Below are positions 7,076-39,900 of a stretch of 64,000 bases of DNA, one piece after another. The first letter of the stretch is position 1, and each line of letters opens with the position of its first letter. Position numbers and translations under genes: made by a program. The notes beneath the pieces are model-generated. The model made no database searches, was not told where the DNA came from, and worked only from the letters and a program-made list of their open reading frames with translations. The DNA is taken from assembly GCA_965223325.1 (NCBI GenBank), contig CBDCWI010000002.1, positions 4,448,001 through 4,512,000 of the forward strand, given 5' to 3'. This stretch comes from Candidatus Multivoradales bacterium. Lineage in GTDB: Bacteria > Acidobacteriota > Thermoanaerobaculia > Multivoradales > Multivoraceae.

Positions 7076-7149
7076 GGCGTCCCCAGGGAGTCGTCGGCCG
7101 CGTCACACTGTAGCTACGGGTACCGTCATTCGCCCTGGCGGCGTTCCGC

Positions 7150-8675
7150 GCCTGGCGGCTTTCAAGGCACCTATGTTTCACAGCCATTCGAGGTTCACGC
7201 GCCTGCCGAGATTCACGAGCGTCAGCGGCCATCTGGAAAGTGAGCCACCTTGCCTCCAGCGGCGTGCCACCGGCGTAGTACTGCCACGCGACGCCCCGCG
7301 AGCCGCTTGGAACAACGGCACTCGAAGGTGGGGGCCGTAACAAGAGCGCAGATTCTCGGGAGGTACGACTACCAGTTCGCCAAACAACGGCAGCTTCCTC
7401 CCCATGCGTTTCGCCAAGCCCAGGATCTACACGCCCAACCGCGTCGTCGAAGTCACCACGCGCTGCCTCCAGTCGCGTTTCCTCCTGCGCCCGAGCAAAG
7501 AAGTCAACAACGAGATCATCGCCGGCTCGTGCGCAGCGGCTCTACGGAGTGAGCGTCCACGCCTTCTGGTTCGGCTCAAACCACTGCCACCTCTTGCTGT
7601 CTGCCGCATCGCAGTGGCACATCTCGCGCCTCATGGGTTTCACCAACGGAAACATCGCGAGACGAGTTGGCCGGTTGCAGCGTTGGCAGCGAGCGGTTCT
7701 GGTGTCGCCGCTACCAGGGCATCGAACTCACCGCGGAGCCTCAAGCGGCGTTCCAGCGCCTGCGCTACGTCATGGCGCAGGGCTGCAAAGAAGGGCTGAT
7801 TGAATCGCCGCTTGACTGGCCCGGTGTGACGAGTGCTCGGGCTCTTGCCGACGGTTCGATGAAGCTCTCGGGCGTCTGGCTAGATCGCACCGGCTTGTAC
7901 CACGAGCGCGTCCGCCGAGGAGTTATAGGCCCGCGATCCAAACAGCTGAGCCGGAGCGAGCGTCGCGAGGCGAGTCGCAAGATCGACATCACCGAGTTCG
8001 AGACGGTCGAGGAGCTCACTCTCGAGCTTCTGCCGCACTTTGCCGAGCTGAGCGCCGAGGCCTACCGCAAGATGCTCGTCTCGATGATCGAAGACATCGA
8101 GGAAGAGACAGGCCAACGCCTCGATCTCGAAGGTGGGCGGAGCATGGGACGCGAGAAGATCCTCGCCCAGGACCCTCACGCCGCTCCGCGGCAGTCGAAG
8201 CGCAGTCCCGCCCCGGCCTGCCACGCCCACACCCGGGAACAGCGCGTCGCGTTCATCGTCAACCGCTGGCATTTCGTTGTGGCGTACAGGAGGGCGGCGA
8301 GTAGGTTGCGTTCGGGTGAGGAGAACGTCGCGTTCCCGCGAGGTTGCTTTCCGCCGCGTGGCGCGTTCGTTCCGCACGTGGCTCGCGCTCCTGGATAGAA
8401 GGACTTCAGAGTTGCGTCTTTTTGGGACGGCGAATCACGAGATCGCGGCGCGAGCTATGGCGCAGTCAACCGCGCAGCGGCTTGGACCGGCTTGGACGGT
8501 GGTTTGAGGCGTGGTCGCGCCGCGTTGAGGAGGTGTTTGGAGCGGATCTGTTTACGCAGGTTCAGTACGGCCGCAGACTTGGCTCCGGGATCCGACTCGT
8601 GAATCTCGGCATGCGCGTGAATTTCGCATGGCTGTGAAACATAGTTGCCTGGAACGTCTCGAGGCGAAGCCTCGG
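7150..8675 (+). mobile_element. Family-A HUH element copy A1 (frameshifted)
   Basis: Degenerate left end; intact right end ending cgaggcgaagcctcgg; left boundary approximate. Confidence 0.85.
7404..8398 (+). pseudogene. RAYT-like Y1 transposase, family A, two frameshifts
   Basis: 4-bp deletion near 7525 and 1-bp insertion near 7688 relative to intact copy 17097-18095. Confidence 0.85.
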
Positions 8676-8689
8676 GACGGGAGTCCCTC

Positions 8690-12883: not shown

Positions 12884-14283
12884 GATCGCGCGGCGATGCC
12901 GCCCACGGTCGGGGGTAAGTTTTGAGTCGAAGTTGTGGCGCAGGGCCGGGACTCGCCACCGACCTGACGTGTAGCCCGATTCACAAATGACAGTTGGTCG
13001 ATGGCGAGGGTCATCCGCTAAGATTTCACTCCCTGCAGGACATCGATGGCTCCGGGCGAAGAGTCATGGCCCATCAACTGAGATACGTCCCCACCGACTC
13101 GAGCGGTTGGGGAGTCGTCGAAGTGACGGTGCGCATCGTCAACGGATTCTTCCTGTTGGCGCCATCGTCACGCCTGCGCGACCTGCTGATCGGGATCATC
13201 GGCCGCGCGCAGCGAAAGACCGAAATCCGGATCCACGCCCTGGACTACCAGGTCAATCATGCCCACCTTCTGCTGGGCGCTCGCGACGCCCAGCAGCTGG
13301 CCGATTTCATGCGGCGCATTCAGCACCAGACGAGTGTGGAACTACGGATCCTGCGCGGGTGGAAGGGTCCGAAATGGGAAGGGCCCTACAAGACGTCGTT
13401 CCCCGGTCACGCGAAGAAGGACCTCTGCCGGCGCTTTCGCTACATCCTTGCCCAGGGTTGCAAGGCGGGGTTGGTGTCTTCACCTCGCAAGTGGCCAGGC
13501 GTGTCGGTAGGGGAGGCGTTGTGGTCAGGGACCTTCGAGCTCGAGGGCACCTGGGTCGATCGTTCAGCGCTTCGTCGTGCCCGTTTCTCGAAAGCCGGTC
13601 GTCGTTTGAGCGAAAAGGACTTCTCGAGCCGCGAGACGGTCGTTTTATCGAAGCTTCCGTGCTTCGAGGACCTCCCTGACGAGGAGTACTTCGACTGGGC
13701 CCGCGGGATGATTGTTGAGATCGAGGACGAGACCCGGGTGCGCCACAAACGGGAGGGAACGAGGCCTCGCGGCGCCTACAAGACAACGCAGGTGAGTCCG
13801 ATGCGCCGTCCGAGGAAGCTCGATTGGGGGCCGAGGCCTCGGGTCATCGCGTCGGACTCGTTCGAGCGCAATCGGCTGCTTTCGGTTTTCGATGCGGTGA
13901 GGCGAGCGCATCGCGCGGCGCGCGATCTTCTGTGGAGTGGTGACCTGGAGGCGCGATTTCCGCCCGGGACTTTTCCAAGCCCGCTGCCGTTTGTGGCCCT
14001 GGAAGTGGCTGGGCCGGGTGCACGCGACGGTCCCTGAGTCCAGGCCGCCGCCGAAGAGGTTGACGAGGTTGAGGGGGACGCACCGGCAGGTGTGGTGGCG
14101 GAGCTGCGTCTGTCGGGTGGAGTGCCGAGGCTTCAGGGGTGGCGAAGGCGACGTCTCTGCCCTCGCGACACCCATCGAGGTGGTGAAAGAGGACGATGGA
14201 GTGCTTCGGAACTCGGCGCGTCGCCTTGTCTGGTGTTGCCGTGAAAACTTACCCCCTACCGTGCGCGGCATCGCCGCGCGATC
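12884..14283 (+). mobile_element. Family-B HUH element copy B1 (1400 bp)
   Basis: GATC-hairpin inverted ends on both sides; no TSD. Confidence 0.9.
13066..14037 (+). CDS. RAYT-like Y1 HUH transposase, family B
   Basis: VEVTVR, NHAHLLL (HUH), RYILAQGCKAGLVSSPRKWPG (putative catalytic Tyr). Confidence 0.8.
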   Translation: MAHQLRYVPTDSSGWGVVEVTVRIVNGFFLLAPSSRLRDLLIGIIGRAQRKTEIRIHALDYQVNHAHLLLGARDAQQLADFMRRIQHQTSVELRILRGWKGPKWEGPYKTSFPGHAKKDLCRRFRYILAQGCKAGLVSSPRKWPGVSVGEALWSGTFELEGTWVDRSALRRARFSKAGRRLSEKDFSSRETVVLSKLPCFEDLPDEEYFDWARGMIVEIEDETRVRHKREGTRPRGAYKTTQVSPMRRPRKLDWGPRPRVIASDSFERNRLLSVFDAVRRAHRAARDLLWSGDLEARFPPGTFPSPLPFVALEVAGPGARDGP

Positions 14284-14485: not shown

Positions 14486-15885
14486 CGGGCGGCGATGCCG
14501 CCCCCGGCCGCCCCCGGTCGGGGGTAAGTTTTGAGCCGAAGTTGTGGCGCAGTGCGACGCCTCGCCACCGACCGGACGTGTAGCCCGATTCACAAATGAC
14601 AGTTGGTCGATGGCGAGGGTCATCCGCTAGGATTCGGCTCCCTGCAGGACATCGATGGCTCCGGGCGAAGAGTCATGGCCCATCAACTGAGATACGTCCC
14701 CACCGACTCGAGCGGTTGGGGAGTTGTCGAAGTGACGGTTCGAATCGTCAACGGGTTCTTCCTGTTGGCGCCATCGTCACACCTACGCGACCTGCTGATC
14801 GGGATCATCGGCCGCGCGCAGCGAAAGACCGAGATCCGGATTCACGCCCTGGACTACCAGGTCAATCATGCTCACCTTCTGCTGGGCGCTCGCGACGCCC
14901 AACAGCTGGCCGACTTCATGCGGCGCATTCAGCACCAGACGAGTGTGGAACTACGGATCCTGCGCGGGTGGAAGGGTCCGAAATGGGAAGGGCCGTACAA
15001 GACGTCGTTTCCCGGTCACGCGAAGAAGGACCTCTGCCGTCGTTTCCGCTACATCCTTGCCCAGGGTTGCAAGGCGGGGTTGGTGTCTTCACCGCGCAAG
15101 TGGCCAGGCGTGTCGGTGGGGGAGGCGCTGTGGTCAGGGACCTTCGAGCTCGAGGGCACGTGGGTCGACCGCTCCGCGCTTCGACGTGCTCGTTTCTCGA
15201 AAGCGGGGCGTCGTTTGAGCGAAAAGGACTTCTCGAGCCGCGAGACGGTCGTCTTATCGAAGCTTCCGTGCTTCGAGGACCTCCCGGACGAGGAGTACTT
15301 CGACTGGGCCCGCGGGATGATTGTAGAGATCGAGGACGAGACCCGGGCGCGCCACAAGCGAAAGGGCACGAGGCCTCGCGGCGCCTACAAAACGACGCAA
15401 GTGAGTCCAATGCGTCGCCCGCGGAAGCTGGATTGGGGGCCGAGGCCTCGGGTCATCGCGTCGGACTCGTTCGAGCGCAATCGGCTGCTTTCGGTTTTCG
15501 ATGCGGTGAGGCGAGCGCATCGTGCGGCGCGCGATCTTCTGTGGGGTGGTGACCTGGAGGCGCGGTTTCCCCCCGGAACTTTCCCAAGCCCGCTGCCGTT
15601 CGTGGCCCTGGAAGTGCCTGGGCCGGGTGCACGCGACGGTCCCTGACGGCCCAGGCCACCGGCGAAGAGGTTGAGGGGGACGCACCGATCGGTGTGTTGG
15701 CGGAGCTCCGTTTGTCGGGCGGAGTACCGACGTTCAGGAGTGGCGACGGCGAGGTTTCTGCCTTCGTCACCGCCCTTCGAGGTCGGAGAAGAGGGCGATG
15801 GAGCGCGCGAAGGCTCGGCGCTTCGTCCAGTCCAGCGTTGCCGTCAAAACTTACCCCCGACCGTGCGCGGCATCGCCGCGCGATC
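14486..15885 (+). mobile_element. Family-B HUH element copy B2 (damaged left hairpin)
   Basis: Left end lacks GATC and has a gccgcccccg duplication; right end canonical. Confidence 0.85.
14675..15646 (+). CDS. RAYT-like Y1 HUH transposase, family B
   Basis: Near-identical to 13066-14037. Confidence 0.8.
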   Translation: MAHQLRYVPTDSSGWGVVEVTVRIVNGFFLLAPSSHLRDLLIGIIGRAQRKTEIRIHALDYQVNHAHLLLGARDAQQLADFMRRIQHQTSVELRILRGWKGPKWEGPYKTSFPGHAKKDLCRRFRYILAQGCKAGLVSSPRKWPGVSVGEALWSGTFELEGTWVDRSALRRARFSKAGRRLSEKDFSSRETVVLSKLPCFEDLPDEEYFDWARGMIVEIEDETRARHKRKGTRPRGAYKTTQVSPMRRPRKLDWGPRPRVIASDSFERNRLLSVFDAVRRAHRAARDLLWGGDLEARFPPGTFPSPLPFVALEVPGPGARDGP

Positions 15886-16418
15886 CAACGGTCGGCGGAG
15901 ACGAAGCCGCCGTTGTCGCTGTTGTAGAAGCGTTTCGTCGTTCCGTCCGAGAGCACCAGGAGAGGGCTGTCGGGGTTGAACTCACTACTGCCGGCACCGT
16001 TCGGGTTGAAGACCTTGCCCGCGTGCAGTTGCCATCCCGAGCCACCCATGTGATCTGTCGTGTCTGAAGACGCCACGTGGGTCTGGCGCACGTCGGTGCG
16101 GTTCCAGACGTCGGAGTTGTAGTAGAGGTTGACCTGCAGGCGCAGGTCGGCCCTCACCGGAAGGTCGATAGGCGTCATACGAAACATGACTCGGCCACCG
16201 AACAGGTCGAAGTCCTCTTCGAAGCCCCCGAGGACAGCTCCGTTGGTGACCTCAGAGAGATAGCGATCGTGAGTCGGCTCGTCGCCCGCGGTCTGCGCCG
16301 TGAGCTGGCTGGTCAGGCCATGCAGGAGAGCAAGAAGGATTGCGGCGGCGACGAGAATGGGACCGCTCGGAGCCGCTTCAGGAGGCGTACGGTCGAAGAC
16401 GGTGGGCTGGGCTGTCAT
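15886..16418 (-). pseudogene. 5' fragment of an RHS/YD-repeat-like exported protein
   Basis: Hydrophobic leader, then DLFGGRV...IDLP...LQVNLYYNS...GSGWQL...LVLSDGT like RHS N-termini; cut at the B2 right end. Confidence 0.6.
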
Positions 16419-16671: not shown

Positions 16672-16809
16672 ATGACCGACATCAGAAACGACAATCCCTC
16701 GGGATTCAGCCTCAACCTGCCCGACACCTTCGGCGGTTCCGATGGCGGTTTCGGAACCTCACCGAGCCTCGAGAACCACAGCTACGAACCGTCGGGTCCC
16801 GGCGGCTGA
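16672..16809 (+). pseudogene. 5' fragment of a paralog of the 1967-3799 toxin gene
   Basis: MTDIRNDNPSGFSLNLPDTFGGSDGGFGTSPSLENHSYEPSG versus MTDIRNDNSSGFGLNLADTFGGSDGGFGTSTSLENDSYEPSG; upstream DNA also similar. Confidence 0.85.
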
Positions 16810-16836
16810 CAAAGTAGTCAGCTCGGTAACAGGCAC
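16805..16836 (+). repeat. Piece of IS110 leader (hairpin)
   Basis: gctgacaaagtagtcagctcggtaacaggcac is the near-exact reverse complement of ~36197-36228. Confidence 0.75.
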
Positions 16837-18350
16837 CGCCTCGGCGAGCGAGGTTCCAGGCACCTATGTTTCTCAGCCATGCGAGGTTCACGCGCCTGCC
16901 GAGATTCACGAGCGTCAGCGGCCATCAGGAAAGTGAGCCACCTTGCCTCCAGCGGCGTGCCACCGGCGTAGTGCTGCCACGCGACGCGCCGCGAGCCGCT
17001 TGGAACAACGGCACTCGAAGGTGGAGGCCGTAACAAGAGCGGAGATTCTCGGGAGGTACGACAACCAGTTCGCCAAACAACGACAGCTTCCTCCCCATGC
17101 GTTTCGCCAAACCCAGGATCTACACGCCCAACCGCGTCGTCGAAGTCACCACGCGCTGCCTCCAGTCGCGTTTCCTCCTGCGGCCGAGCAAAGAAGTCAA
17201 CAACGAGATCATCGCCGTCCTGGCTCGTGCGCAGCGGCTCTACGGAGTGAGCGTCCACGCCTTCTGGTTCGGCTCAAACCACTGCCACCTCTTGCTGTCC
17301 GCCGCATCGCAGTGGCACATCTCGCGCTTCATGGGTTTCACCAACGGAAACATCGCGAGACGAGTTGGCCGGTTGCAGCGTTGGCGCGAACGTTTCTGGT
17401 GCCGCCGTTACCAGGGCATCGAACTCACCGACGAGCCGCAGGCCGCCTACCAGCGCCTGCGCTACGTCTTGGCGCAGGGCTGCAAAGAAGGGCTGATTGA
17501 TTCGCCGCTTGACTGGCCCGGTGTGACGAGTGCTCGGGCTCTTGCCGACGGTTCGATGAAGCTCTCGGGCGTCTGGCTCGATCGCACTGGCTTGTACCAC
17601 GAGCGCGTCCGCCGAGGAGTTATTGGCCCGCGGTCCAAACGGCTGAGCCGGAGGGAGCGTCGCGAGGCGAATCGCAAGATCGACATCACCGAGTTCGAGA
17701 CGGTCGAGGAGCTCACTCTCGAGCCCCTGCCGCACTTTGCCGAGCTGAGCGCCGAGGCCTACCGCAAGATGCTCGTCTCGATGATCGAAGACATCGAGGA
17801 AGAGACAGGCCAACGCCTCGATCTCGCAGGTGGGCGGAGCATGGGACGCGAGAAGATTCTCGCCCAGGACCCTCACGCCGCTCCGCGCCATTCGAAGCGC
17901 AGCCCCGCCCCGGCCTGCCACGCCCACACCCGGGAACAGCGCGTCGCGTTCATCGTCAACCGCTGGCATTTCGTTGTGGCGTACAGGAGGGCGGCGCGTA
18001 GGTTGCGTTCGGGTGAGGAGAACGTCGCGTTCCCGCGAGGTTGCTTCCCGCCGCGTGGCGCGTTCGTTCCGCACGCGGCTCGCGCTCCTGGATAGAAGGA
18101 CTTCAGTGTTGCGTCTTTTGTGACGGCGATCACGAGATTCGCGGCGCGAGCTATGGCTTTGGTTGTTGCGCTGGCGACTCGAGGGCGGTTCGAGGCGTGA
18201 CCGGGCCTTGGCGACCGGTCGTTTCGCGCGAATCGGTTAGCGCGCGCTCGGCAAAGCGGTGAGTTTCGCGCCGGAGTCTGCCTCGTGAATCTGGATATGC
18301 CCCTGAAGCTCGCTTGGCACCGAAACATAGTTGCCTGGAACGTCTCAGGC
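16837..18350 (+). mobile_element. Family-A HUH element copy A2
   Basis: Both inverted ends recognisable, terminal hairpins degenerate. Confidence 0.85.
17097..18095 (+). CDS. RAYT-like Y1 HUH transposase, family A
   Basis: VVEVTTRC, SNHCHLLL (HUH), FWCRRY, RYVLAQGCKEGLIDSPLDWPG. Confidence 0.8.
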   Translation: MRFAKPRIYTPNRVVEVTTRCLQSRFLLRPSKEVNNEIIAVLARAQRLYGVSVHAFWFGSNHCHLLLSAASQWHISRFMGFTNGNIARRVGRLQRWRERFWCRRYQGIELTDEPQAAYQRLRYVLAQGCKEGLIDSPLDWPGVTSARALADGSMKLSGVWLDRTGLYHERVRRGVIGPRSKRLSRRERREANRKIDITEFETVEELTLEPLPHFAELSAEAYRKMLVSMIEDIEEETGQRLDLAGGRSMGREKILAQDPHAAPRHSKRSPAPACHAHTREQRVAFIVNRWHFVVAYRRAARRLRSGEENVAFPRGCFPPRGAFVPHAARAPG

Positions 18351-18365
18351 GAGAACTCGGCGCGG

Positions 18366-21430: not shown

Positions 21431-21459
21431 CTACTCGGAACCCGACCCCCGCCTGGCGG

Positions 21460-22985
21460 GGCCGACGCTCCAGGCACCTATGTTTCATAGCCATGCGAGG
21501 TTCACGCGCCTGCCGAGATTCACGAGCGTCAGCGGCCGTCAGGAAAGTGAGCCACCTTGCCTCCAGCGGCGTGCCACCGGCGAAGTCCTGCCAGGCGATG
21601 CCCCGCGAGGCGCTTTGAACAACGGCACTCGAAGGCGGGGGCCGTAACAAGAGCGCAGATTCTCGGGAGGTACGACAACCAGGATCGCCAAACAACGGCA
21701 GCTTCCTCCCCATGCGTTTCGCCAAGCCCAGGATCTACACGCCCAACAGCGTCGTCGAAGTCACCACGCGCTGCCTCCAGTCGCGTTTCCTCCTGCGCCC
21801 GAGCAAAGAAGTCAACAACGAGATCATCGCCGTCCTGGCTCGTGCGCAGCGGCTCTACGGAGTGAGCGTCCACGCCTTCTGGTTCGGCTCAAACCACTGC
21901 CATCTCTTGCTGTCCGCCGAATCGCAGTGGCACATCTCGCGCTTCATGGGTTTCACCAACGGAAACATCGCGAGACGAGTTGGCCGGTTGCAGCGTTGGC
22001 GCGAGCGGTTCTGGTGTCGCCGTTACCAGGGCATCGAACTCACCGACGAGCCGCAAGCCGCCTACCAGCGTCTCCGCTACGTCTTGGCGCAGGGCTGCAA
22101 AGAAGGGCTGATTGATTCGCCGCTTGACTGGCCCGGTGTGACCAGTGCTCGCGCTCTTGCCGGCGGCTCGATGAAGCTCTCGGGCGTCTGGCTAGATCGC
22201 ACCGGCCTGTACCACGAGCGCGTCCGCCGAGGAGTGATCGGCCCGCGATCCAAACAGCTGAGCCGGAGCGAGCGTCGCGAGGCGAATCGCAAGATCGACA
22301 TCACCGAGTTCGAGACGGTCGAGGAGCTCACTCTCGAGCCCCTGCCGCACTTTGCCGACCTGAGCGCCGAGGCCTACCGCAAGATGATCGTTTCGATGAT
22401 CGAAGACATCGAGGAAGAGACAGGCCAACGCCTCGATCTCGAAGGTCGGCGGAGCATGGGACGCGAGAAGATTCTCGCCCAGGACCCTCACGCCGCTCCG
22501 CGGCAGTCGAAGCGCAGCCCCGCCCCGGCCTGCCACGCCCACACCCGGGAACAGCGCGTCGCGTTCATCGTCAACCGCTGGCATTTCGTTGTGGCGTACA
22601 GGAGGGCGGCGCGTAGGTTGCGTTCGGGTGAGAAGAACGTCGCGTTCCCTCGAGGTTGCTTTCCGCCGCGCGGCGCGTTCGTTCCGCACGCGGCTCGCGC
22701 TCCTGGATAGAAGGACTTCAGTGTTGCGTCTTTTGGGGACGGCGATCACGAGATCGCGGCGCGAGTTATGGCGCAGTCAATCGCGCAGCGGCTTGGACTG
22801 GCTTGGACGGTGGTTTGAGGTGTGATCGAGCCGCGTTGAGGAGGTGTTTGGAGCGGATCTGCTTGCGCATGTCCAGTACGGCCGCAGACTTGGCTCCGGG
22901 ATCCGACTCGTGAATCTCGGCATGCGCGTGAACCTCGCATGGCTATGAAACATAGTTGCCTGGAACGTCTCCGAGGCGGCCTCGG
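21460..22985 (+). mobile_element. Family-A HUH element copy A3
   Basis: Inverted ends; right hairpin ccgaggcggcctcgg; left boundary approximate. Confidence 0.85.
21712..22710 (+). CDS. RAYT-like Y1 HUH transposase, family A
   Basis: Intact 332 aa, near-identical to A2. Confidence 0.8.
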   Translation: MRFAKPRIYTPNSVVEVTTRCLQSRFLLRPSKEVNNEIIAVLARAQRLYGVSVHAFWFGSNHCHLLLSAESQWHISRFMGFTNGNIARRVGRLQRWRERFWCRRYQGIELTDEPQAAYQRLRYVLAQGCKEGLIDSPLDWPGVTSARALAGGSMKLSGVWLDRTGLYHERVRRGVIGPRSKQLSRSERREANRKIDITEFETVEELTLEPLPHFADLSAEAYRKMIVSMIEDIEEETGQRLDLEGRRSMGREKILAQDPHAAPRQSKRSPAPACHAHTREQRVAFIVNRWHFVVAYRRAARRLRSGEKNVAFPRGCFPPRGAFVPHAARAPG

Positions 22986-23545
22986 GAGATCGAGGACGAG
23001 ACCCGGGCGCGCCACAAGCGAAAGGGCACGAGGCCTCGCGGCGCCTACAAAACGGCGCAGGTGAGTCCGATGCGCCGTCCGAGGAAGCTCGATTGGGGGC
23101 CGAGGCCTCGGGTCATCGCGTCGGACTCGTACGAACGCAATCGGCTGCTTTCGGTTTTCGATGCGGTGAGGCGAGCGCATCGTGCGGCGCGCGATCTTCT
23201 GTGGGGTGGTGACCTGGAGGCGCGGTTTCCCCCCGGAACTTTCCCAAGCCCGCTGCCGTTCGTGGCCCTGGAAGTGCCTGGGCCAGGTACACGCGACGGT
23301 CCCTGACGGCCCAGGCCACCGGCGAAGAGGTTGAGGGGGACGCACCGATCGGTGTGTTGGCGGAGCTCCGTTTGTCGGGCGGAGTACCCACGTTCAGGAG
23401 TGGTGAAGGCGAGGTTTCTGCCTTCGTCACCGCCCTTCGAGGTCGGAGAGGAGGGCGATGGAGCGCGCGAAGGCTCGGCGCTTCGTCCAGTCCAGCGTTG
23501 CCGTCAAAACTTACCCCCGACCGTGCGCGGCATCGCCGCGCGATC
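22986..23545 (+). mobile_element. 5'-truncated family-B element
   Basis: Starts at EIEDETR codons directly after the A3 hairpin; canonical right end. Confidence 0.9.
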
Positions 23546-24297
23546 TTCGAGCTCGAGGGCACCTGGGTCGATCGTTCGGCGCTTCGCCGTGCCCGTTTCT
23601 CGAAAGCCGGTCGTCGTTTGAGCGAAAAGGACTTCTCGAGCCGCGAGACGGTCGTGTTATCGAAGCTTCCGTGCCTCGAGGACCTCCCTGACGAGGAGTA
23701 CTTCGACTGGGCCCGCGGGATGATTGTTGAGATCGAGGACGAGACCCGGGTGCGCCACAAGCGAGAGGGGACGAGGCCTCGCGGTGCCTACAAGACGATG
23801 CAGGTGAGTCCGATGCGCCGTCCGAGGAAGCTCGATTGGGGGCCGAGGCCTCGGGTCATCGCGTCGGACTCGTACGAACGCAATCGCCTGCTTTCGGTTT
23901 TCGATGCGGTGAGGCGAGCGCACCGCGCGGCACGGGATCTTCTGTGGAGTGGTGACCTGGAGGCGAAGTTTCCGCCTGGCACTTTTCCAAGCCCGCTGCC
24001 GTTTGTGGCCTTGGAAGTGCCTGGGCCGGGTGCACGCGACGGTCCCTGACGGTCCGGGCCGCCGGCGAAGAGGTTGACAAGGTTGAGGGTGACGCACCTA
24101 TCGGTGTGATGGCGGAGCTGCGTTTGTCGGGCAGAGTGCCGAGGTTTCAGGGGTGGCGAAGGCGAGGTTTCTGCCCTCGCGATGACCGATCGAGGTGGTG
24201 GAGAAGGCTGATGGAGCGCTCTGGATTCGGCGCGGCGCCTTCGTCGGCGCTGCCATCAAAACTTACCCCCTACCGTGCGCGGCATCGCCGCGCGAAC
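23546..24297 (+). mobile_element. 5'-truncated family-B element
   Basis: Starts at FELEGTW directly after a B GATC end; ends in GAAC instead of GATC. Confidence 0.9.
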
Positions 24298-24369
24298 TGA
24301 CTACTTTGTCAGCTGCCTGGGAGGCCGACCGACTCATTTCATCTGGAACGTCTCGAGGCGAAGCCTCGG
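24297..24369. repeat. IS110 leader remnant fused to the tip of a family-A right end
   Basis: ctgactactttgtcagctgcctgggaggccgaccgactcatttcat-CT-ggaacgtctcgaggcgaagcctcgg; same junction at 36258. Confidence 0.8.
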
Positions 24370-24422
24370 GGAGGTACACGCTATTCCCGCACACTCGGTA
24401 CACGCTATTCCTGAATTCGCGT

Positions 24423-24450
24423 TTGACAGCCGATTTCGCCGCCGTATATG
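24423..24450 (+). promoter_or_regulatory. Possible sigma70 promoter
   Basis: TTGACA-16 nt-TATATG upstream of 24493. Confidence 0.4.
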
Positions 24451-24492
24451 GTCGGCTAACCCAATGTCGAACAACCATAAGGGGGCGATCAG

Positions 24493-25098
24493 ATGATTGT
24501 CGAACAATCGGCGCTGTTTCGAATCGGCTTCGTTTTCATAGCATTGGCCGTGCTAACCACCGGGTTAGCTAGCGCACAAGGCGTTACCCAACAGGAAGTG
24601 CGCCTCACCCTCAAAGGAAGCAATCTTCCCGCCTACACGTGCGCACAGCACCTCCTCCAGACTCCGGACGTTCAGACACTGCGCGAGATTCTCGATCTCG
24701 ACCAGGCCGAAAGGGATCGCTTGTCTGCGCGGCAAGCAGACTACGAGTCTCATCGGAATGGGCTGGCTGCTCATATGAGGAACCGCTACGAGGCTTTGGG
24801 GCTGAGCGACCCTGCGAGGGCCGCGACTATCCCTGAACAAGCCCTTCGTTCCTACAGCCTTGAGGGATCCAGGCGGGATGCCGCTGCCGTTCGACGACTC
24901 GTAGCATCGCTTTATCGAGGTCTCGATGACGAGTCAAGAGCTCTAATGAAGGCAGAGTTCCCGGGCGGAAGAATCTGCGAGGGCGTTGCTTTGCACACGA
25001 CCGACGAGTCGTTTGATCCCGACCTGTTGGACCTCTTTGATACTTTCAGAGACGGAATGCAAGAGGACTTTGACACCACTGACAGAGGAAACCGATGA
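24493..25098 (+). CDS. Exported hypothetical protein
   Basis: Signal peptide ending ASA; overlaps the next gene. Confidence 0.7.
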   Translation: MIVEQSALFRIGFVFIALAVLTTGLASAQGVTQQEVRLTLKGSNLPAYTCAQHLLQTPDVQTLREILDLDQAERDRLSARQADYESHRNGLAAHMRNRYEALGLSDPARAATIPEQALRSYSLEGSRRDAAAVRRLVASLYRGLDDESRALMKAEFPGGRICEGVALHTTDESFDPDLLDLFDTFRDGMQEDFDTTDRGNR

Positions 25099-25583
25099 TG
25101 TTGACGAGAGGATGCCTCCTTGTAGCAATGCTGCTGGCAATTGCCGGCACCCCCAGCCAGGCGCTGACCTATTCAACACACGTAGCGACGACGGCCATCG
25201 GCAACAACTTCAGCATGACCGTCGACTTTACGGCGTGGGTGAATGTGACTCAGATTACGGAATTGGATTGGCTCGACGTTATCCAGGCCACGGCGATAGG
25301 ATACGGCTATTACAACGCTTGTATTCTCAATGTGAACAACCTCGGCCAGGACGATAAGACGTGGATAATCCTCCCCTACCAGCCGACTCCTTTCAAGGTA
25401 GAAGCCCTGTTGAGAAAGAACGGTACCTGTGGTGGCGGAGTTGGCGGTCTGTCCTTCAAGACCAAGGGTGTTTTTAGTGGAACCGAGATCCCTGCGTCCT
25501 CCAAAAACGGAAACTGCGTTTGCCCTTGTGAAGCGCCACCCGGCGGCGGTGGTGGTGGTGGAGGAGGATGGCCGCCACAGTAG
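25095..25583 (+). CDS. Exported Cys-containing protein with poly-Gly tail
   Basis: Signal peptide ending SQA; CVCPC...PPGGGGGGGGGWPPQ; GAGG RBS. Confidence 0.7.
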   Translation: MMLTRGCLLVAMLLAIAGTPSQALTYSTHVATTAIGNNFSMTVDFTAWVNVTQITELDWLDVIQATAIGYGYYNACILNVNNLGQDDKTWIILPYQPTPFKVEALLRKNGTCGGGVGGLSFKTKGVFSGTEIPASSKNGNCVCPCEAPPGGGGGGGGGWPPQ

Positions 25584-25643
25584 TTAGCTCACAGCCGGCG
25601 GTTCTGGGTCGTCCCAAAGGGGAAAGCCTACCGTGCCGTCGCT

Positions 25644-27037
25644 GATCGCGCGGCGATGCCGCGCCCAGTCGGGGGTAAGTTTTGAGTCGAAGTCGTGGCG
25701 CAGGACCGGGACTCGCCACCGGCCCAACGTGTAGCCCGATTCACAAGATGACAGTTGGTCGATGGCGAGGGTCATCCGCTAGGATTCGGCTCCCTGCAAG
25801 GCATCGATGGTTCCGTGCGATGAGTCATGGCCCATCAACTGAGGTATGTCCCCACCGACGGAAGCGGTTGGGGAGTCGTCGAAGTGACGGTGCGCATCGT
25901 CAACGGATTCTTCCTGTTGGCGCCATCGTCACGCCTGCGCGACCTGCTGATCGGGATCATCGGCCGCGCGCAGCGAAAGACCGAAATCCGGATCCACGCC
26001 CTGGACTACCAGGTCAATCATGCCCACCTTCTGCTGGGCGCTCGCGACGCCCAGCAGCTGGCCGATTTCATGCGGCGCATTCAGCACCAGACGAGTGTGG
26101 AACTACGGATCCTGCGCGGGTGGAAGGGTCCGAAATGGGAAGGGCCCTACAAGACGTCGTTCCCCGGTCACGCGAAGAAGGACCTCTGCCGGCGCTTTCG
26201 CTACATCCTTGCCCAGGGCTGCAAGGTGGGATTGGTGTCTTCACCGCGCAAGTGGCCAGGCGTGTCGGTGGGGGAGGCGCTGTGGTCAGGGACCTTCGAG
26301 CTCGAGGGCACCTGGGTCGATCGTTCGGCGCTTCGTCGTGCCCGTTTCTCGAAAGCCGGTCGTCGTTTGAGCGAAAAGGACTTCTCGAGCCGCGAGACGG
26401 TCGTTTTATCGAAGCTTCCGTGCTTCGAGGACCTCCCTGACGAGGAGTACTTCGACTGGGCCCGCGGGATGATTGTAGAGATCGAGGACGAGACCCGGGT
26501 GCGCCACAAACGGGAGGGAACGAGGCCTCGCGGCGCGTACAAAACGACGCAAGTGAGTCCAATGCGTCGCCCGCGGAAGCTCGATTGGGGGCCGAGGCCT
26601 CGGGTCATCGCGTCGGACTCGTTCGAGCGCAATCGGCTGCTTTCGGTTTTCGATGCGGTGAGGCGAGCGCATCGCGCGGCGCGGGATCTTCTCTGGAGTG
26701 GTGACCTGGAGGCGCGGTTTCCCCCCGGGACTTTTCCAAGCCCGCTGCCCTTTGTGGCCTTGGAAGTGCCTGGGCCGGGTGCACGCGACGGTCCCTGACG
26801 GCCCAGCCCACCGGCGAAGAGGTTGAGGGGGATGCACCGATCGGTGTGTTGGCGGAGCTCCGTTTGTCGGGCGGAGTACCGACGTTCAGGAGTGGCGAAG
26901 GCGAGGTTTCTGCCTTCGTCACCGCCCCTCGAGGTCGGAGAAGAGGGCGATGGAGCGCGCGAAGGCTCGGCGCTTCGTCCAGTCCAGCGTTGCCGTCAAA
27001 ACTTACCCCCGACCGTGCGCGGCATCGCCGCGCGATC
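25644..27037 (+). mobile_element. Family-B HUH element copy B3
   Basis: Canonical GATC-hairpin ends. Confidence 0.9.
25827..26798 (+). CDS. RAYT-like Y1 HUH transposase, family B
   Basis: Intact 323 aa. Confidence 0.8.
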   Translation: MAHQLRYVPTDGSGWGVVEVTVRIVNGFFLLAPSSRLRDLLIGIIGRAQRKTEIRIHALDYQVNHAHLLLGARDAQQLADFMRRIQHQTSVELRILRGWKGPKWEGPYKTSFPGHAKKDLCRRFRYILAQGCKVGLVSSPRKWPGVSVGEALWSGTFELEGTWVDRSALRRARFSKAGRRLSEKDFSSRETVVLSKLPCFEDLPDEEYFDWARGMIVEIEDETRVRHKREGTRPRGAYKTTQVSPMRRPRKLDWGPRPRVIASDSFERNRLLSVFDAVRRAHRAARDLLWSGDLEARFPPGTFPSPLPFVALEVPGPGARDGP

Positions 27038-27142
27038 TGCCATCAAAACTCACCCCCTACCGTGCGCGGCCTCTCGGCGCGCCGCCCAGTACGGCGATGC
27101 CGTCAACCTTACCCCGACCGTGCGCAGCATCGCCGCGCGATC
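27038..27142 (+). repeat. Two extra degenerate tandem copies of the B right end
   Basis: tgccatcaaaactcaccccctaccgtgcgcggc... and tgccgtcaaccttaccccgaccgtgcgcagcatcgccgcgcgatc. Confidence 0.85.
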
Positions 27143-31798: not shown

Positions 31799-33389
31799 CC
31801 GAGGCTTCGCCTCGCCTCGGCGACGTTCCAGGCACCTATGTTTCACTGCCATGCGAGGGTTCACGCCCCCGCCAAGGCTTCGCCTCGGCGATGTTCCAGG
31901 CACCTATGATTCACAGCCATGCGAGGTTCACGCGCCTGCCGAGATTCACGAGTGTCAGCGGCCATCAGAAAGTGAGCCACCCCGCCTTCAGCGGCGTTAG
32001 TACGCCACGTGACGCCCCGCGAGCCGCTTAGAACAACGGCACTCGAAGGTGGAGGCCGTAACAAGAGCGGAGATTCTCGGGAGGTACGACAACCAGTTCG
32101 CCAAACAACGACAGCTTCCTCCCCATGCGTTTCGCCAAGCCCAGGATCTACACGCCCAACCGCGTCGTCGAAGTCACCACGCGCTGCCTCCAGTCGCGTT
32201 TCCTCCTGCGCCCGAGCAAAGAAGTCAACAACGAGATCATCGCCGTCCTGGCTCGTGCGCAGCGGCTCTACGGAGTGAGCGTCCACGCCTTCTGGTTCGG
32301 CTCAAACCACTGCCATCTCTTGCTGTCCGCCGCATCGCAGTGGCACATCTCGCGCTTCATGGGTTTCACCAACGGAAACATCGCGAGACGAGTTGGCCGG
32401 TTGCAGCGCTGGCGCGAGCGGTTCTGGTGTCGCCGCTACCAGGGCATCGAACTCACCGACGAGCCGCAGGCCGCCTACCAGCGCCTGCGCTACGTCTTGG
32501 CGCAGGGCTGCAAAGAAGGGCTGATTGATTCGCCGCTTGACTGGCCCGGTGTGACGAGTGCTCGCGCTCTTGCCGACGGTTCGATGAAGCTCTCGGGCGT
32601 CTGGCTAGATCGCACTGGCTTGTACCACGAGCGCGTCCGTCGAGGAGTTATCGGCCCGCGATCCAAACAGCTGAGCCGGAGCGAGCGTCGCGAGGCGAAT
32701 CGCAAGATCGACATCACCGAGTTCGAGACGCTCGAGGAGCTCACTCTCGAGCCCCTGCCGCACTTTGCAGACTTGAGCGCCGCGGCCTACCGCAAGATGC
32801 TCGTTTCGATGATCGAAGACATCGAGGAAGAGACAGGCCAACGCCTCGATCTCGAAGGTGGGCGGAGCATGGGGCGCGAGAAGATCCTCGCCCAGGACCC
32901 TCACGCCGCTCCGCGCCATTCGAAGCGCAGCCCCGCCCCGGCCTGCCACGCCCACACCCGGGAACAGCGCGTCGCGTTCATCGTCAACCGCTGGCGTTTT
33001 GTTGTGGCGTACAGGAGGGCGGCGCGTAGGTTGCGTTCGGGTGAGGAGAACGTCGCGCTCCCGCGAGGTTGCTTCCCGCCGCGTGGCGCGTTCGTTCCGC
33101 ACGCGGCTCGCGCTCCTGGATAGACGAGTTTCAGCGCAGCGTCTTCCGCGTCGGCGATCACGAGGTCGCGGCGCGAGCTATGGCTTTGGTTGTTGCGCTG
33201 GCGACTCGCGGGCGGTTCGGGGCGTGACCGGGCCCTGGCGACCAGTCGTTTCGCGCGAATCGGTTAGCGCGTGCTCAGCAAAGCGGTGAGTTTCGCGCCG
33301 GAGTCTGCCTCGTGAATCTGGGTATGCCCCTGAAGCTCGCTTGGCACCGAAACATAGTTGCCTGGAACGTCTCCGAGGCGAAGCCTCGG
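31799..33389 (+). mobile_element. Family-A HUH element copy A4 with tandemly doubled left end
   Basis: Left-end unit occurs at ~31799 and ~31872; right end ccgaggcgaagcctcgg. Confidence 0.9.
32125..33123 (+). CDS. RAYT-like Y1 HUH transposase, family A
   Basis: Intact 332 aa. Confidence 0.8.
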   Translation: MRFAKPRIYTPNRVVEVTTRCLQSRFLLRPSKEVNNEIIAVLARAQRLYGVSVHAFWFGSNHCHLLLSAASQWHISRFMGFTNGNIARRVGRLQRWRERFWCRRYQGIELTDEPQAAYQRLRYVLAQGCKEGLIDSPLDWPGVTSARALADGSMKLSGVWLDRTGLYHERVRRGVIGPRSKQLSRSERREANRKIDITEFETLEELTLEPLPHFADLSAAAYRKMLVSMIEDIEEETGQRLDLEGGRSMGREKILAQDPHAAPRHSKRSPAPACHAHTREQRVAFIVNRWRFVVAYRRAARRLRSGEENVALPRGCFPPRGAFVPHAARAPG

Positions 33390-33394
33390 CGTGG

Positions 33395-33780: not shown

Positions 33781-33913
33781 TTCAGAGCCTAAGGGTCGAG
33801 CCAGTCTGAACCGCCCGATCGGGGTGGTCGGTGTTCGTTGGCGTCCCCAGGGAGTCGTCGGCCGCGTCACACTGTAGCTACGGGTACCGTCATTCGCCCT
33901 GGCGGCGTTCCGC

Positions 33914-35437
33914 GCCTGGCGGCTTTCAAGGCACCTATGTTTCACAGCCATTCGAGGTTCACGCGCCTGCCGAGATTCACGAGCGTCAGCGGCCATCTGG
34001 AAAGTGAGCCACCTTGCCTCCAGCGGCGTGCCACCGGCGTAGTACTGCCACGCGACGCCCCGCGAGCCGCTTGGAACAACGGCACTCGAAGGTGGGGGCC
34101 GTAACAAGAGCGCAGATTCTCGGGAGGTACGACTACCAGTTCGCCAAACAACGGCAGCTTCCTCCCCATGCGTTTCGCCAAGCCCAGGATCTACACGCCC
34201 AACCGCGTCGTCGAAGTCACCACGCGCTGCCTCCAGTCGCGTTTCCTCCTGCGCCCGAGCAAAGAAGTCAACAACGAGATCATCGCCGGCTCGTGCGCAG
34301 CGGCTCTACGGAGTGAGCGTCCACGCCTTCTGGTTCGGCTCAAACCACTGCCACCTCTTGCTGTCTGCCGCATCGCAGTGGCACATCTCGCGCCTCATGG
34401 GTTTCACCAACGGAAACATCGCGAGACGAGTTGGCCGGTTGCAGCGTTGGCAGCGAGCGGTTCTGGTGTCGCCGCTACCAGGGCATCGAACTCACCGCGG
34501 AGCCTCAAGCGGCGTTCCAGCGCCTGCGCTACGTCATGGCGCAGGGCTGCAAAGAAGGGCTGATTGAATCGCCGCTTGACTGGCCCGGTGTGACGAGTGC
34601 TCGGGCTCTTGCCGACGGTTCGATGAAGCTCTCGGGCGTCTGGCTAGATCGCACCGGCTTGTACCACGAGCGCGTCCGCCGAGGAGTTATAGGCCCGCGA
34701 TCCAAACAGCTGAGCCGGAGCGAGCGTCGCGAGGCGAGTCGCAAGATCGACATCACCGAGTTCGAGACGGTCGAGGAGCTCACTCTCGAGCTTCTGCCGC
34801 ACTTTGCCGAGCTGAGCGCCGAGGCCTACCGCAAGATGCTCGTCTCGATGATCGAAGACATCGAGGAAGAGACAGGCCAACGCCTCGATCTCGAAGGTGG
34901 GCGGAGCATGGGACGCGAGAAGATCCTCGCCCAGGACCCTCACGCCGCTCCGCGGCAGTCGAAGCGCAGTCCCGCCCCGGCCTGCCACGCCCACACCCGG
35001 GAACAGCGCGTCGCGTTCATCGTCAACCGCTGGCATTTCGTTGTGGCGTACAGGAGGGCGGCGAGTAGGTTGCGTTCGGGTGAGGAGAACGTCGCGTTCC
35101 CGCGAGGTTGCTTTCCGCCGCGTGGCGCGTTCGTTCCGCACGCGGCTCGCGCTCCTGGATAGAAGGACTTCAGTGTTGCGTCTATTGGGACGGCGATCAC
35201 GAGATCGCGGCGCGAGCTATGGCGCAGTCAACCGCGCAGCGGCTTGGACTGGCTTGGACGGTGGTTTGAGGTGTGATCGAGCCGCGTTGAGGGGGTGTGT
35301 GGAGCGGATCTGCTTGCGCATGTTCAGTATGGCCACGGGCTTGGCTCCGGGATCCGGCTCGTGAATCCCGGCATGCGCGTGAACCTCGCATGGCTGTGAA
35401 ACATAGTTGCCTGCAACGTCTCGAGGCGAAGCCTCGG
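33914..35437 (+). mobile_element. Family-A HUH element copy A5 (same frameshifts as A1; CDS 34168-35162)
   Basis: ORF track translations match A1 except near the C-terminus; 3' UTR closer to A3. Confidence 0.85.
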
Positions 35438-35442
35438 GGGGG

Positions 35443-35990
35443 GGACGAGACCCGGGCGCGCCACGAGAGGGGACTAGGCCTCGCGGTGCCTACAAGACGA
35501 CACAGGTGAGTCCGATGCGCCGTCCGAGGAAGCTCGATTGGGGGCCGAGGCCTCGGGTCATCGCGTCGGACTCGTACGAGCGCAATCGGCTGCTTTCGGT
35601 GTTCGATGCAGTGAGGCGAGCGCATCGCGCGGCGCGCGATCTTCTGTGGGGTGGTGACCTGGAGGCGCGGTTTCCCCCCGGAACTTTCCCAAGCCCGCTG
35701 CCGTTTGTGGCCCTGGAAGTGCCTGGGCCGGGTGCACGCGACGGTCCCTGACGGCCCAGGCCACCGGCGAAGAGGTTGAGGGGGACGCACCGATCGGTGT
35801 GTTGGCGGAGCTCCGTTTGTCGGGCGGAGTACCGACGTTCAGGAGTGGCGAAGGCGAGGTTTCTGCCTTCGTCACCGCCCTTCGAGGTCGGAGAAGAGGG
35901 CGATGGAGCGCGCGAAGGCTCGGCGCTTCGTCCAGTCCAGCGTTGCCGTCAAGACTTACCCCCGACCGTGCGCGGCATCGCCGCGCGATC
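35443..35990 (+). mobile_element. 5'-truncated family-B element
   Basis: Follows a G9 run; canonical right end. Confidence 0.9.
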
Positions 35991-36259
35991 AAGAGTCGGT
36001 TCAGCCACGGGCTCTGCGCGCATGCCTCCAGAGCAATGCCTCTGCATGTGCGATCGGCGAAGAAGCGCCGCATGCGCTCTTGCGTCGTGGGAATCTCGCA
36101 GCGCTCTACGACCGCGCCCTCTTCGGAGATCTCACAGATCGCACTGGTCTTCACATGGACGTCGATGCCAAAGTAACTCATGGTCGGTCTCCTTCCGTGC
36201 CTGTTACCGAGCTGACCACTTTGTCAGCTGCCTGGGAGGCCGACCGACTCATTTTATCT
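35991..36259 (-). mobile_element. IS110-family remnant: leader plus transposase N-terminus (start 36181)
   Basis: MSYFGIDVHVK...IALEA (first D and E of the DEDD RuvC-like domain); AAGGAG RBS; clipped at a B end. Confidence 0.85.
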
Positions 36260-36288
36260 GGAACGTCGCCGGAACGTCTCCGAGGCGA

Positions 36289-38419: not shown

Positions 38420-39819
38420 GATCGCGCGGCGATGCCGCGCACAGTCGGGGGTAAGTTTTGAGTCGAAGTCGTGGCGCAGGACCGGGACTCGCCACCGGCC
38501 CAACGTGTAGCCCGATTCACAAGATGACAGTTGGTCGATGGCGAGGGTCATCCGCTAGGATTCGGCTCCCTGCAAGGCATCGATGGTTCCGTGCGATGAG
38601 TCATGGCCCATCAACTGAGGTATGTCCCCACCGACGGAAGCGGTTGGGGAGTCGTCGAAGTGACGGTGCGCATCGTCAACGGGTTCTTCCTGTTGGCGCC
38701 ATCGTCACACCTACGCGAACTGCTGATCGGGATCATCGGTCGCGCGCAGCGAAAGACCGAAATCCGGATCTACGCCCTGGACTACCAGGTCAATCATGCT
38801 CACCTTCTGCTGGGCGCTCGCGACGCCCAGCAGCTGGCCGATTTCATGCGGCGCATTCAGCACCAGACGAGTGTGGAACTGCGGATCCTGCGCGGGTGGA
38901 AGGGTCCGAAATGGGAAGGGCCGTACAAGACGTCGTTTCCCGGTCACGCGAAGAAGGACCTCTGCCGTCGTTTCCGCTACATCCTTGCCCAGGGCTGCAA
39001 GGCGGGGTTGGTGTCTTCACCGCGCAAGTGGCCAGGCGTGTCGGTGGGGGAGGCGTTGTGGTCAGGGACCTTCGAGCTCGAGGGCACCTGGGTCGATCGT
39101 TCAGCGCTGCGTCGTGCCCGTTTCTCGAAGGCCGGTCGTCGTTTGAGCGAAAAGGACTTCTCGAGCCGCGAGACGGTCGTGTTATCGAAGCTTCCGTGCC
39201 TCGAGGACCTCCCTGACGAGGAGTACTTCGACTGGGCCCGCGGGATGATTGTAGAGATCGAGGACGAGACCCGGGTGCGCCACAAACGGGAGGGAACGAG
39301 GCCTCGCGGCGCCTACAAGACAACGCAGGTGAGTCCGATGCGCCGTCCGAGGAAGCTCGATTGGGGGCCGAGGCCTCGGGTCATCGCGTCGGACTCGTTC
39401 GAGCGCAATCGGCTGCTTTCGGTTTTCGATGCAGTGAGGCGAGCGCATCGCGCGGTGCGCGATCTTCTGTGGAGTGGTGACCTGGAGGCGAAGTTCCCGC
39501 CTGGCACTTTTCCAAGCCCGCTGCCGTTTGTGGCCCTGGAAGTGGCTGGGCCGGGTGCACGCGACGGTCCCTGAGTCCAGGCCGCCGACGAAGAGGTTGA
39601 CGAGGTTGAGGGCGACGCGCCTACTGGGCGATGGCGGAGCTGCGTCTGCCGGACGGCGTACCGAGGTTCAGGACTGGCGAAAGCGAGGTTTCTGGCCCCG
39701 CGACCACCGATCGACGTCGGAGAGGGGGGCGATGGACTTTGCGCAGACTCGGCGCATTGCCCAAAACGGTGTTGCCGTGAAAACTTACCCCCGACCGTGC
39801 GCGGCATCGCCGCGCGATC
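38420..39819 (+). mobile_element. Family-B HUH element copy B4 (1400 bp)
   Basis: Canonical ends; divergent 3' UTR. Confidence 0.9.
38603..39574 (+). CDS. RAYT-like Y1 HUH transposase, family B
   Basis: Intact 323 aa. Confidence 0.8.
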   Translation: MAHQLRYVPTDGSGWGVVEVTVRIVNGFFLLAPSSHLRELLIGIIGRAQRKTEIRIYALDYQVNHAHLLLGARDAQQLADFMRRIQHQTSVELRILRGWKGPKWEGPYKTSFPGHAKKDLCRRFRYILAQGCKAGLVSSPRKWPGVSVGEALWSGTFELEGTWVDRSALRRARFSKAGRRLSEKDFSSRETVVLSKLPCLEDLPDEEYFDWARGMIVEIEDETRVRHKREGTRPRGAYKTTQVSPMRRPRKLDWGPRPRVIASDSFERNRLLSVFDAVRRAHRAVRDLLWSGDLEAKFPPGTFPSPLPFVALEVAGPGARDGP

Positions 39820-39900
39820 TATCGGTTGGCAGGTCCGCGCCGGAATCGCGACGTACTGGGCACGAACGGCTCTACCCGCTGCCTGGGCGGCGCCTGCGCA

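Follow-up and report, generated by a model that had tools for sequence, protein, structure and literature searches.

A dead IS1111-group insertion sequence joined to the terminal repeat of a RayT-like transposon in an acidobacterium

In 2003, Partridge and Hall reportedly found IS4321 and IS5075 in the terminal inverted repeats of the Tn21 family. The target logo of IS4321 that is given in PMC11187229 is built from nearly 900 insertions. The same source describes ISPa11 (IS1111 family) as inserting in REP sequences and ISEc21 (IS110 family) as targeting a conserved stretch of codons in the transposase genes of the IS3 family. Insertion in REPs is also described for IS621 (IS110 family; PMC11208160) and for ISPpu9 (IS110 family; PMC12288879). 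According to PMC11187229, IS1111 and IS110 elements are highly site-specific. The site-specific insertion of these elements into repeats, including the ends or genes of other mobile elements, is already established. What is new here is the class of the host element (a RayT-like Y1 transposon) and the phylum.

Elements of the IS1111 group are described as having subterminal repeats of 11-13 bp, that lie 7 bp in from the left terminus and 3 bp in from the right terminus, and a long non-coding region with a guide RNA downstream of the transposase gene (PMC11187229). Their left ends are short and their right ends long, with the predicted bridge RNA in the right end (PMC11208160).

We analysed a stretch of DNA of 64,000 nucleotides, which we call the window. 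The part of it at 35991-36259 is a dead IS fragment in a mosaic of nested transposons; it is not a gene, and not an RNA gene either. We propose, with fairly good confidence, that an IS of the IS1111 group inserted under RNA guidance in the end of an element that we call A, that it was clipped by the ends of an element that we call B, and that the junction was then partly duplicated.

Elements A and B and the remnant beside them

Families A and B were defined by comparing the window to itself. Family A is about 1.53 kb, and its copies in the window are at 7149-8677, 16831-18365, 21449-22987, 31875-33394, and 33913-35444. Family B is about 1.4 kb, with copies at 12884-14283, 14507-15886, 25644-27038, and 38420-39820, and with partial copies that retain the 3' part at 22986-23545, 23542-24295, and 35443-35990. 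Across the genome, we found 7 matches of at least 1,200 bp for A and 10 for B. A is restricted to three genomic regions, two of which are at contig ends.

Both families encode Y1_Tnp proteins (PF01797; E = 3.7e-8 for A and 6.3e-6 for B). These proteins reach only 36.7 bits (A) and 31.8 bits (B) against NCBIfam's REP_Tyr_transpos, which has a cut-off of 80, and one source calls many public relatives "REP element-mobilizing transposase RayT". Both families are multi-copy, with Y1_Tnp/RayT-like proteins of 320-330 amino acids, imperfect terminal inverted repeats of about 60 bp, and GC-rich hairpin tips. RAYTs are usually single-copy, unlike the IS-like multiplicity of A and B. The imperfect terminal inverted repeats of A end in ...GTGAAACATAGTTGC-CT-GGAACGTCTC-GAGGCgaaGCCTC-GG, and the similarity between copies ceases after the hairpin. 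There are also numerous partial copies of A or B that contain only the 3' part, and these have one fixed right end.

The features that matter for our argument are these:

33913..35444, + strand: complete A element with a RayT-like Y1 transposase, immediately upstream of B'
35443..35990, + strand: B', the 3' 548 bp of an element B, whose right-end tip (...GCCGCGCGATC) cuts off the IS at codon 64
35991..36259, - strand: remnant of an IS1111-group (IS110-family) element, 269 nt; the parent is expected to have been about 1.37 kb
35991..36181, - strand: N-terminus of the DEDD transposase, 63-64 codons, with the ATG at 36181
36182..36259, - strand: left end and 5' leader of the IS, 78 nt, non-coding, recognized by its fold, the clade consensus, and the covariation of the outer stem
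36182-36192, - strand: 3' arm of the leader stem, GGAGACCGACC, which bears the Shine-Dalgarno sequence and is predicted to pair with the distal part of the subterminal repeat
within 36182..36259, - strand: inner hairpin of the IS leader, GCTGAC/GTCAGC
36240-36252, - strand: copy of the subterminal inverted repeat, ATGAGTCGGTCGG, part of the left end of the IS
36253-36259, - strand: terminal extension of 7 nt, AGATAAA, part of the left end of the IS
36260..36288, + strand: outer tip of A on the left-end side of the IS, with its hairpin cut after GAGGCGA
24297..24344, - strand: second left-end piece (nt 1-48 of the leader); on one side it meets an A tip at the same CT, and on the other it is truncated by the right tip of B'' (23542-24295), another B copy
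24345..24370, + strand: A tip with a complete hairpin (GGAACGTCTC GAGGCgaaGCCTC GG), which flanks the second left-end piece
16808..16836, + strand: third leader piece, internal (GACAAAGTAGTCAGCTCGGTAACAGGCAC), flanked by a truncated paralogue of a 610-aa ORF on one side and by the left end of the A copy 16831-18365 on the other

The A tip at 36260..36288 contains an 11-nt tandem duplication (GGAACGTCGCC GGAACGTCTCC). Tandem duplications of 11-12 nt of the GGAACGTCTCC segment occur in several A tips (36260-36281, C1:2128569-2128593, and around 31800-31830). There are also runs of 8-9 G exactly at two rearrangement junctions, 35436-35444 (between the A tip and B') and C1:2133022-2133030 (between the IS and B). 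Such G runs may be filler, slippage, or sequencing error.

On the minus strand, an IS110-family insertion sequence occupies 35991-36259 with its first 269 nt, namely a left end of 78 nt and 63 codons. The transposase begins with MSYFGIDVHVKTSAICEISEEG (MSYFGIDVH...) and runs from the ATG at 36181 to 35991, and the reading frame then continues into B' as a meaningless ORF of 207 amino acids. The 64-aa fragment matches DEDD_Tnp_IS110 from Pfam (PF01548) at 19.7 bits (E = 7.6e-4), which is sub-threshold, as the cut-off is 29 bits. A metagenomic protein, P0003 (341 amino acids), is 98% identical to the window copy and is 100% identical over 68 amino acids to a copy on C1. P0003 contains both PF01548 and PF02371 (precomputed Pfam domains), and it scores 230 bits against NF033542 from NCBIfam ("IS110 family RNA-guided transposase"), where the cut-off is 140. 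Because the fragment is nearly identical to the N-terminus of P0003, and given these matches of P0003, it is the start of an IS110-family element. The N-terminal RuvC-like DEDD domain (PF01548) can be recognized from the fragment together with its identity to P0003. So, the original prediction that this is an IS110 element, of the RNA-guided type, is borne out. The C-terminal serine domain (PF02371) is missing from the remnant and from the whole genome: a tblastn search with P0003 found only amino acids 1-64 and 1-68, and nothing past residue 68.

To place the element within the family, we used relatives with readable DNA that are 50-53% identical to P0003 at the amino acid level. These are from genomes G006 (2 copies), G145 (2 types, 5 copies), and G355 (4 copies). 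Each measures 1362-1385 bp, of which the left end takes up about 100 nt and the non-coding region that follows the gene about 290 nt. They begin with AGATGAG-ATGAGTCGGTCGG, where the subterminal repeat is identical to that of the window IS, and they end with CGACCGACTCAT-AGA, where CGACCGACTCAT is a perfect 12-bp right copy of the repeat (...CTCAT-AGA). The left end of the copies in the window and on C1 (AGAT(A/G)AA followed by ATGAGTCGGTCGG) agrees with the consensus of the clade, which is AGATG-R-N-ATGAG with the subterminal repeat. This left-end consensus is present in all 11 of the oriented copies of four related IS types. Among 27 more distant loci, AGATG-R-N-ATGAG is present in 20, and a right-end consensus of CTCAT-R-G-R is present in 16.

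The asymmetric extension (7 or 6 bp on the left, 3 bp on the right) is found on the left, which is the side that is present. The remnant has the left copy of the subterminal repeat, ATGAGTCGGTCGG, and the right end is absent from the genome. The left end of 78 nt fits the short left ends of the IS1111 group. Judging from its sequence (the 7-nt extension, the subterminal repeat, and the short left end), the window element is of the IS1111 type.

Junctions with A ends, other copies, and their independence

Uninterrupted A ends read CATAGTTGC-CT-GGAACGTC. The junction at 36258/59 reads ...CATTTTAT-CT-GGAACGTC, and the junction at 24343/44 reads ...CATTTCAT-CT-GGAACGTC, which confirms the earlier observation that the IS leader meets the A end at the same CT at 24343 and 36258. 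Genome-wide, there are four junctions between the left end of the IS and an A tip: these two, C1:2132755, and C1:2135737. The natural left terminus of the IS meets the outer tip of the terminal repeat of A at GTTCC|AG, and in all four cases, the match to A stops exactly 7 nt before the subterminal repeat (at AGATAAA or AGATGAA). A is broken 25-27 nt inside its outer terminus, whereas the break in the IS coincides with its own terminus; this polarity means that it was the IS that entered A, not A that entered the IS. The terminus of the IS had been expected to lie inside the A end at a dinucleotide, and our data support this, with CT/AG as the dinucleotide.

We looked for the other side of the insertion, that is, a junction between the right end of the IS and A, and found none: all 20 of the inner A-end motifs in the genome are joined to normal tips, so no junction of the right-end side survives. 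We also rejected the idea that the A tip is a part of the IS, as the terminus in the clade is at the AG and as A ends bear the tip without the IS.

Another explanation is that the junction was made from the side of A, or that the assembly of a contig end rich in repeats produced a chimera. The IS does get clipped by A and B ends at other positions (16836, 24295, and 35990), and the region is a mosaic near contig ends. However, the break in the IS is at the terminus that is predicted from its family, and combined with the internal break in A, this is the signature of an IS that inserted into A. Also, the four identical junctions have three different outer flanks and 2% divergence, which is unlike a chimera. 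We consider this explanation very unlikely.

The right-end tips of B abut pieces of the IS at 35990 and 24295, as had been noted in the claim that B ends clipped the IS. The copies of the IS are truncated at codon 64, at codon 68, and at nucleotide 48 of the leader, and joins to B right ends removed the portion of the IS that was 3' of these points. The third leader piece, which had been reported to abut an A left end at 16805-16836, is present as well; it is 29-32 nt long and extends from about 16805/8 to 16836. Upstream of it, 16673-16807 is a truncated paralogue (85% nucleotide identity to 3664-3799) of the N-terminus of a 610-aa ORF (1967-3799). This paralogue stops at the leader piece.

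We did not find a full copy of the IS, the 3' part of its transposase, its right end, or its downstream non-coding region anywhere in the genome. A blastn search of the genome with the remnant gave 6 matches, every one of which is a 5' piece or an A tip. A search of the genome for the right-hand copy of the repeat, and for motifs of the scaffold that is found in the 3' region of the relatives, gave nothing credible. The closest relative among 401 genomes of the class has at most 53% amino acid identity. The best match is 40% identical among species-representative genomes and 43% identical among JGI metagenome contigs. Relatives in a scan of plasmids are at most 36.5% identical, a scan of viral contigs gave 0 matches, and 61 relatives that were compared over the N-terminus are at most 46% identical. 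We also looked for an A-like gene beside P0003: among the best 120 of 271 A-like proteins, none comes from a contig as long as its own (30,571 bp). These proteins are cluster representatives only, so this is weak evidence that the full copy lies apart from an A-type gene.

The genome also contains an unrelated second IS110-family element of about 1.6 kb (22% amino acid identity to P0003), with 3-4 full copies. These are at C2:3820231-3821846, around 4167700-4169310, and 4398887-4400502, and there is a fragment at C1:2124988-2125287. This element has a long 3' non-coding region that contains a hairpin core, GAGGCTTCGCCTC (13 nt), which is identical to the hairpin of the A tip. One fragment of it adjoins a B right end on C1.

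The four junctions are not four independent insertions. The junctions at 24343 of the window and at C1:2135737 lie within one duplication of 2777 bp (96.4% identity), so they represent one event. This 2.8-kb segmental duplication (24267-27033 of the window versus C1:2133039-2135813) connects the ends of two contigs and is bounded by right-end tips of B, which suggests that B ends mobilised the flanking DNA.

Within the window, both junctions follow a duplicated A-B' block (21469-23545 versus 33926-35990; 2080 bp, 95.1% identity), which is composed of A and a B copy that is truncated at nearly the same internal point. The same block is unlikely to have formed twice by chance, so the two window junctions probably descend from one ancestral block of A, B', IS, and tip, with a further event at 24295 that involved B''. 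The original prediction had named a single duplicated event as what would count against it. For the window pair, such a single event is rather favoured.

The copy at C1:2132755 differs from the window copy at 5 of 281 nucleotides, and also in its outer flank, its tip, its junction with B, and the subtype of B. Its B junction is 13-16 nt further into the gene, and it is the tip of the window copy that has the 11-nt duplication and the cut hairpin. The C1:2132755 copy could be a second insertion, or it could equally be a copy in which a different deletion occurred adjacent to a B right end, so that the four junctions may stand for one, two, or three insertions.

These relationships raise the alternative that there was a single insertion, perhaps off-target or at a site that resembles the true target by chance, and that the four junctions are copies of it that arose by duplication or within a composite bounded by A tips, with no specialisation for A ends. 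Besides the shared A-B' block, the C1 region resembles the window arrangement after recombination between two B copies. The outer flanks diverge at or within the hairpin of the A tip, as if the tip were the boundary of a mobile or recombining unit. And at each of the three truncations (nucleotide 48, codon 64, and codon 68), the neighbour is a B right end in the same orientation, which resembles nested adjacent deletions in descendants of one ancestor. On the other hand, the subtype of B, the B junction, and the outer flank all differ between the window and C1 copies. The tips also differ by an indel (CTC-GAGG versus CTCCGAGG), which is polymorphic among ordinary A tips too. For IS1111 and IS110 elements, furthermore, site specificity is such that one natural insertion usually marks the programmed target (as described in PMC11187229). 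Together with the data on targets below, this leads us to view a single unspecialised insertion as unlikely.

The leader hairpin and the guide segments of relatives

The leader of about 78 nt had been predicted to fold, with its outer arms pairing over the ribosome-binding site, and this holds up: the predicted energy is -32.4 kcal/mol (z = -2.95), and 0 of 200 shuffled sequences were as stable. In an alignment of 16 left ends, a consensus stem of 9 pairs links the distal subterminal repeat to the GGAG/start region. Compensatory changes are seen in 7 of the 9 pairs (for example, GGTCGG/CCGACC, GGCCGG/CCGGC, GGCCAACC/GGTTGACC, and CCGGTTCC/GGAACCGG).

It was also suggested that this leader acts as the bridge RNA. 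As an explanation for the junctions, this would mean that the A end is recognized by an RNA within the leader, or by the leader as a whole. The leader does fold stably, and it contains CCAGGCA, which is a 7-nt identity to the intact target (...TTCCAGGCA...); we estimate that 0.09 such matches are expected by chance. But the Shine-Dalgarno sequence lies inside the stem, and covariation has kept the outer stem as one that occludes the ribosome-binding site. Also, the left end of the relatives contains GTGCCAG, and this is unchanged when the target becomes GTGAC. The guides that match the flanks of the relatives are in the 3' non-coding region, and the literature places the guide of IS1111 elements downstream of the transposase gene (PMC11187229; PMC11208160). 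So we do not accept this part of the original prediction, and we view a guide within the leader as extremely unlikely. Given the covariation of the stem and the constancy of GTGCCAG when the target differs, the sequences indicate that the leader hairpin is a conserved 5'-UTR stem that occludes the ribosome-binding site, and not a bridge RNA. This stem may limit or repress translation.

The 3' non-coding region of the four related IS types (10 copies) has a fixed scaffold with two variable segments. The elements of the scaffold are GACTCCGA, about 10 nt, GG...CCG, N, 5 nt, and AGATGGGAGC. The downstream guide segment, whose 5 nt directly precede AGATGGGAGC, reads as the last 5 nt of the left flank and then AGATG. 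The match to the flank is 5/5 in 9 of the 10 copies and 4/5 in the other copy. In the type from G145 whose flank is GTGAC, this guide changes from GTGCC to GTGAC. The upstream guide segment is the reverse complement of the right flank, with exact runs of 3-10 nt for cognate pairs versus 2-6 nt for non-cognate pairs. For one of the G355 copies (L101), the upstream match is no better than for non-cognate pairs. In all four related types, the complement of the top strand comes first and the segment for the bottom strand comes second, with covariation. This is the order that PMC11187229 describes for the seekRNAs of the IS1111 family, where the top-strand match is 5' of the bottom-strand match. 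An Rfam search of five of the relatives' loci, at E ≤ 0.1, did not identify any family.

We also note that G145 contains two IS types (L104-L106 versus L080 and L103) with 81% DNA identity that differ in both guides and in both flanks. These are a natural reprogramming pair.

The A end as a probable target, and comparison with described systems

By analogy with the relatives, the target of the window IS is predicted to be GTTCC|AGGCA(A/C)CTA, which is 14 nt (GTTCCAGGCA[AC]CTA). In 6.69 Mb, this has 13 exact sites, or 19 sites if up to 1 mismatch is allowed. All of these sites lie in regions with A copies or A fragments, and uninterrupted empty sites exist. That the predicted target is present only in A ends argues against a single insertion without specialisation. 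Also, the right flanks in the clade mostly start with AG, as does the intact A end.

Relatives occupy the ends of RayT-like elements in two other genomes, which is another argument against the single-insertion explanation. G355 has four full copies, and one of these, a relative of 1385 bp, interrupts the left tip of a RayT-like element at CCTAAGTGCC|AGCCGATTA. This IS is flanked by CCTAAGTGCC and AGCCGATTACTTGC..., and the tblastn match to the RayT-like gene starts 47 nt downstream of it. An uninterrupted paralogue reads CCTAAGTGCC|AGCTGATTA (CCTAAGTGCC|AGCTGATTATTTGC...) and has an inverted tip after the gene, so this is a clean pair of empty and occupied sites. In G055, a 7.4-kb contig contains a 5' remnant of a relative whose left end is joined via CT to the tip GACACCTCTTCCC. 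The same contig contains five intact copies of ...ATTCGG(C/T)T|GA(C/G)ACCTCT and two RayT-like genes. The other side of this remnant seems to have been cut by another copy of that repeat. Among the 104 loci of relatives that were searched, a RayT-like gene is nearby in only 2, and most of the relatives are in other palindromic sequences.

At the G055 locus (L107; G055:C589:1-7415), the two RayT-like genes are in tandem, with a conserved end repeat after each. The tips at this locus carry short tandem repeats (GACACCTCTCCCCAC twice and CCTCTTCCTC three times).

On these indirect grounds, guided targeting of A ends is likely, and it is our best reading of the junctions. In this reading, a member of the IS1111 group entered the terminal repeat of the RayT-like element A between ...GACGTTCC and AGGCA(A/C)CTATG..., pointing away from the hairpin tip. 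The insertion would have been directed by a guide RNA that was encoded downstream of the transposase, with a putative "T" guide complementary to AGGCA(A/C)CTA and a putative "B" guide that reads GTTCC followed by AGATG. Joins to B right ends then deleted everything 3' of codon 64 (codon 68 or leader nucleotide 48 in other copies). With this went the catalytic C-terminal domain, the region of the guide RNA, and the right end, so the element is dead at this locus. The surviving junction was later multiplied, at least in part, by segmental duplication. In the intact element, the pairing of the subterminal repeat with the Shine-Dalgarno region in the leader hairpin would presumably have limited translation.

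More tentatively, a lineage of IS1111-type elements in the Acidobacteriota might be a hyperparasite of RayT-like (HUH/Y1) transposons, in a three-way conflict with A and B, across at least three genomes of the order. We regard this broader reading as possible but somewhat doubtful. It would have the guide RNA address the point where the hairpin tip meets the inner terminal repeat, and each insertion would then detach the tip that the Y1 transposase is expected to require. A and B, as the hosts, would in turn clip and delete the IS.

If the targeting holds, then RNA-guided IS1111 elements home on the ends of HUH/Y1 (RayT-like) elements besides REPs, attC sites, and Tn21 ends, here in a phylum that is little studied. 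The joint changes of guide and target in this clade are natural reprogramming pairs, and would be useful for working out the rules of seekRNAs or bridge RNAs. The practical value of the window locus itself lies in annotation. The remnant is modest comparative material, and as a locus it is ordinary.

The leader can be compared to IS10 and IS50, in whose transcripts a terminal repeat folds back over the ribosome-binding site. As in those elements, a terminal or subterminal repeat supplies the 5' arm of the stem, and the Shine-Dalgarno sequence is masked by the 3' arm. In contrast to IS10 and IS50, the support for the stem here comes from sequence covariation within the clade.

With regard to the target, ISEc21 is also an RNA-guided IS with a natural target within another mobile element. 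The target of ISEc21 is coding and its guide region is upstream, whereas in our case the target is in the non-coding end of an element, presumably with a downstream guide. ISPa11, IS621, and ISPpu9 are similar in that RNA-guided DEDD transposases choose a short palindrome-bearing repeat that is tied to RAYT-type Y1 transposases. In contrast to REPs, the A ends are terminal repeats of about 60 bp of an element that carries a gene, with 7 full copies instead of hundreds of dispersed ones. IS4321 and IS5075 are also of the IS1111 type with subterminal repeats, and they too use one fixed position in the terminal repeat of another transposon. Their host is a DDE transposon of the Tn3 family, whereas the acidobacterial IS sits in a RayT-like HUH/Y1 element, which has hairpin tips. 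The logo for IS4321 is far larger than our set of a few junctions, some of them duplicates, and here only dead 5' remnants survive.
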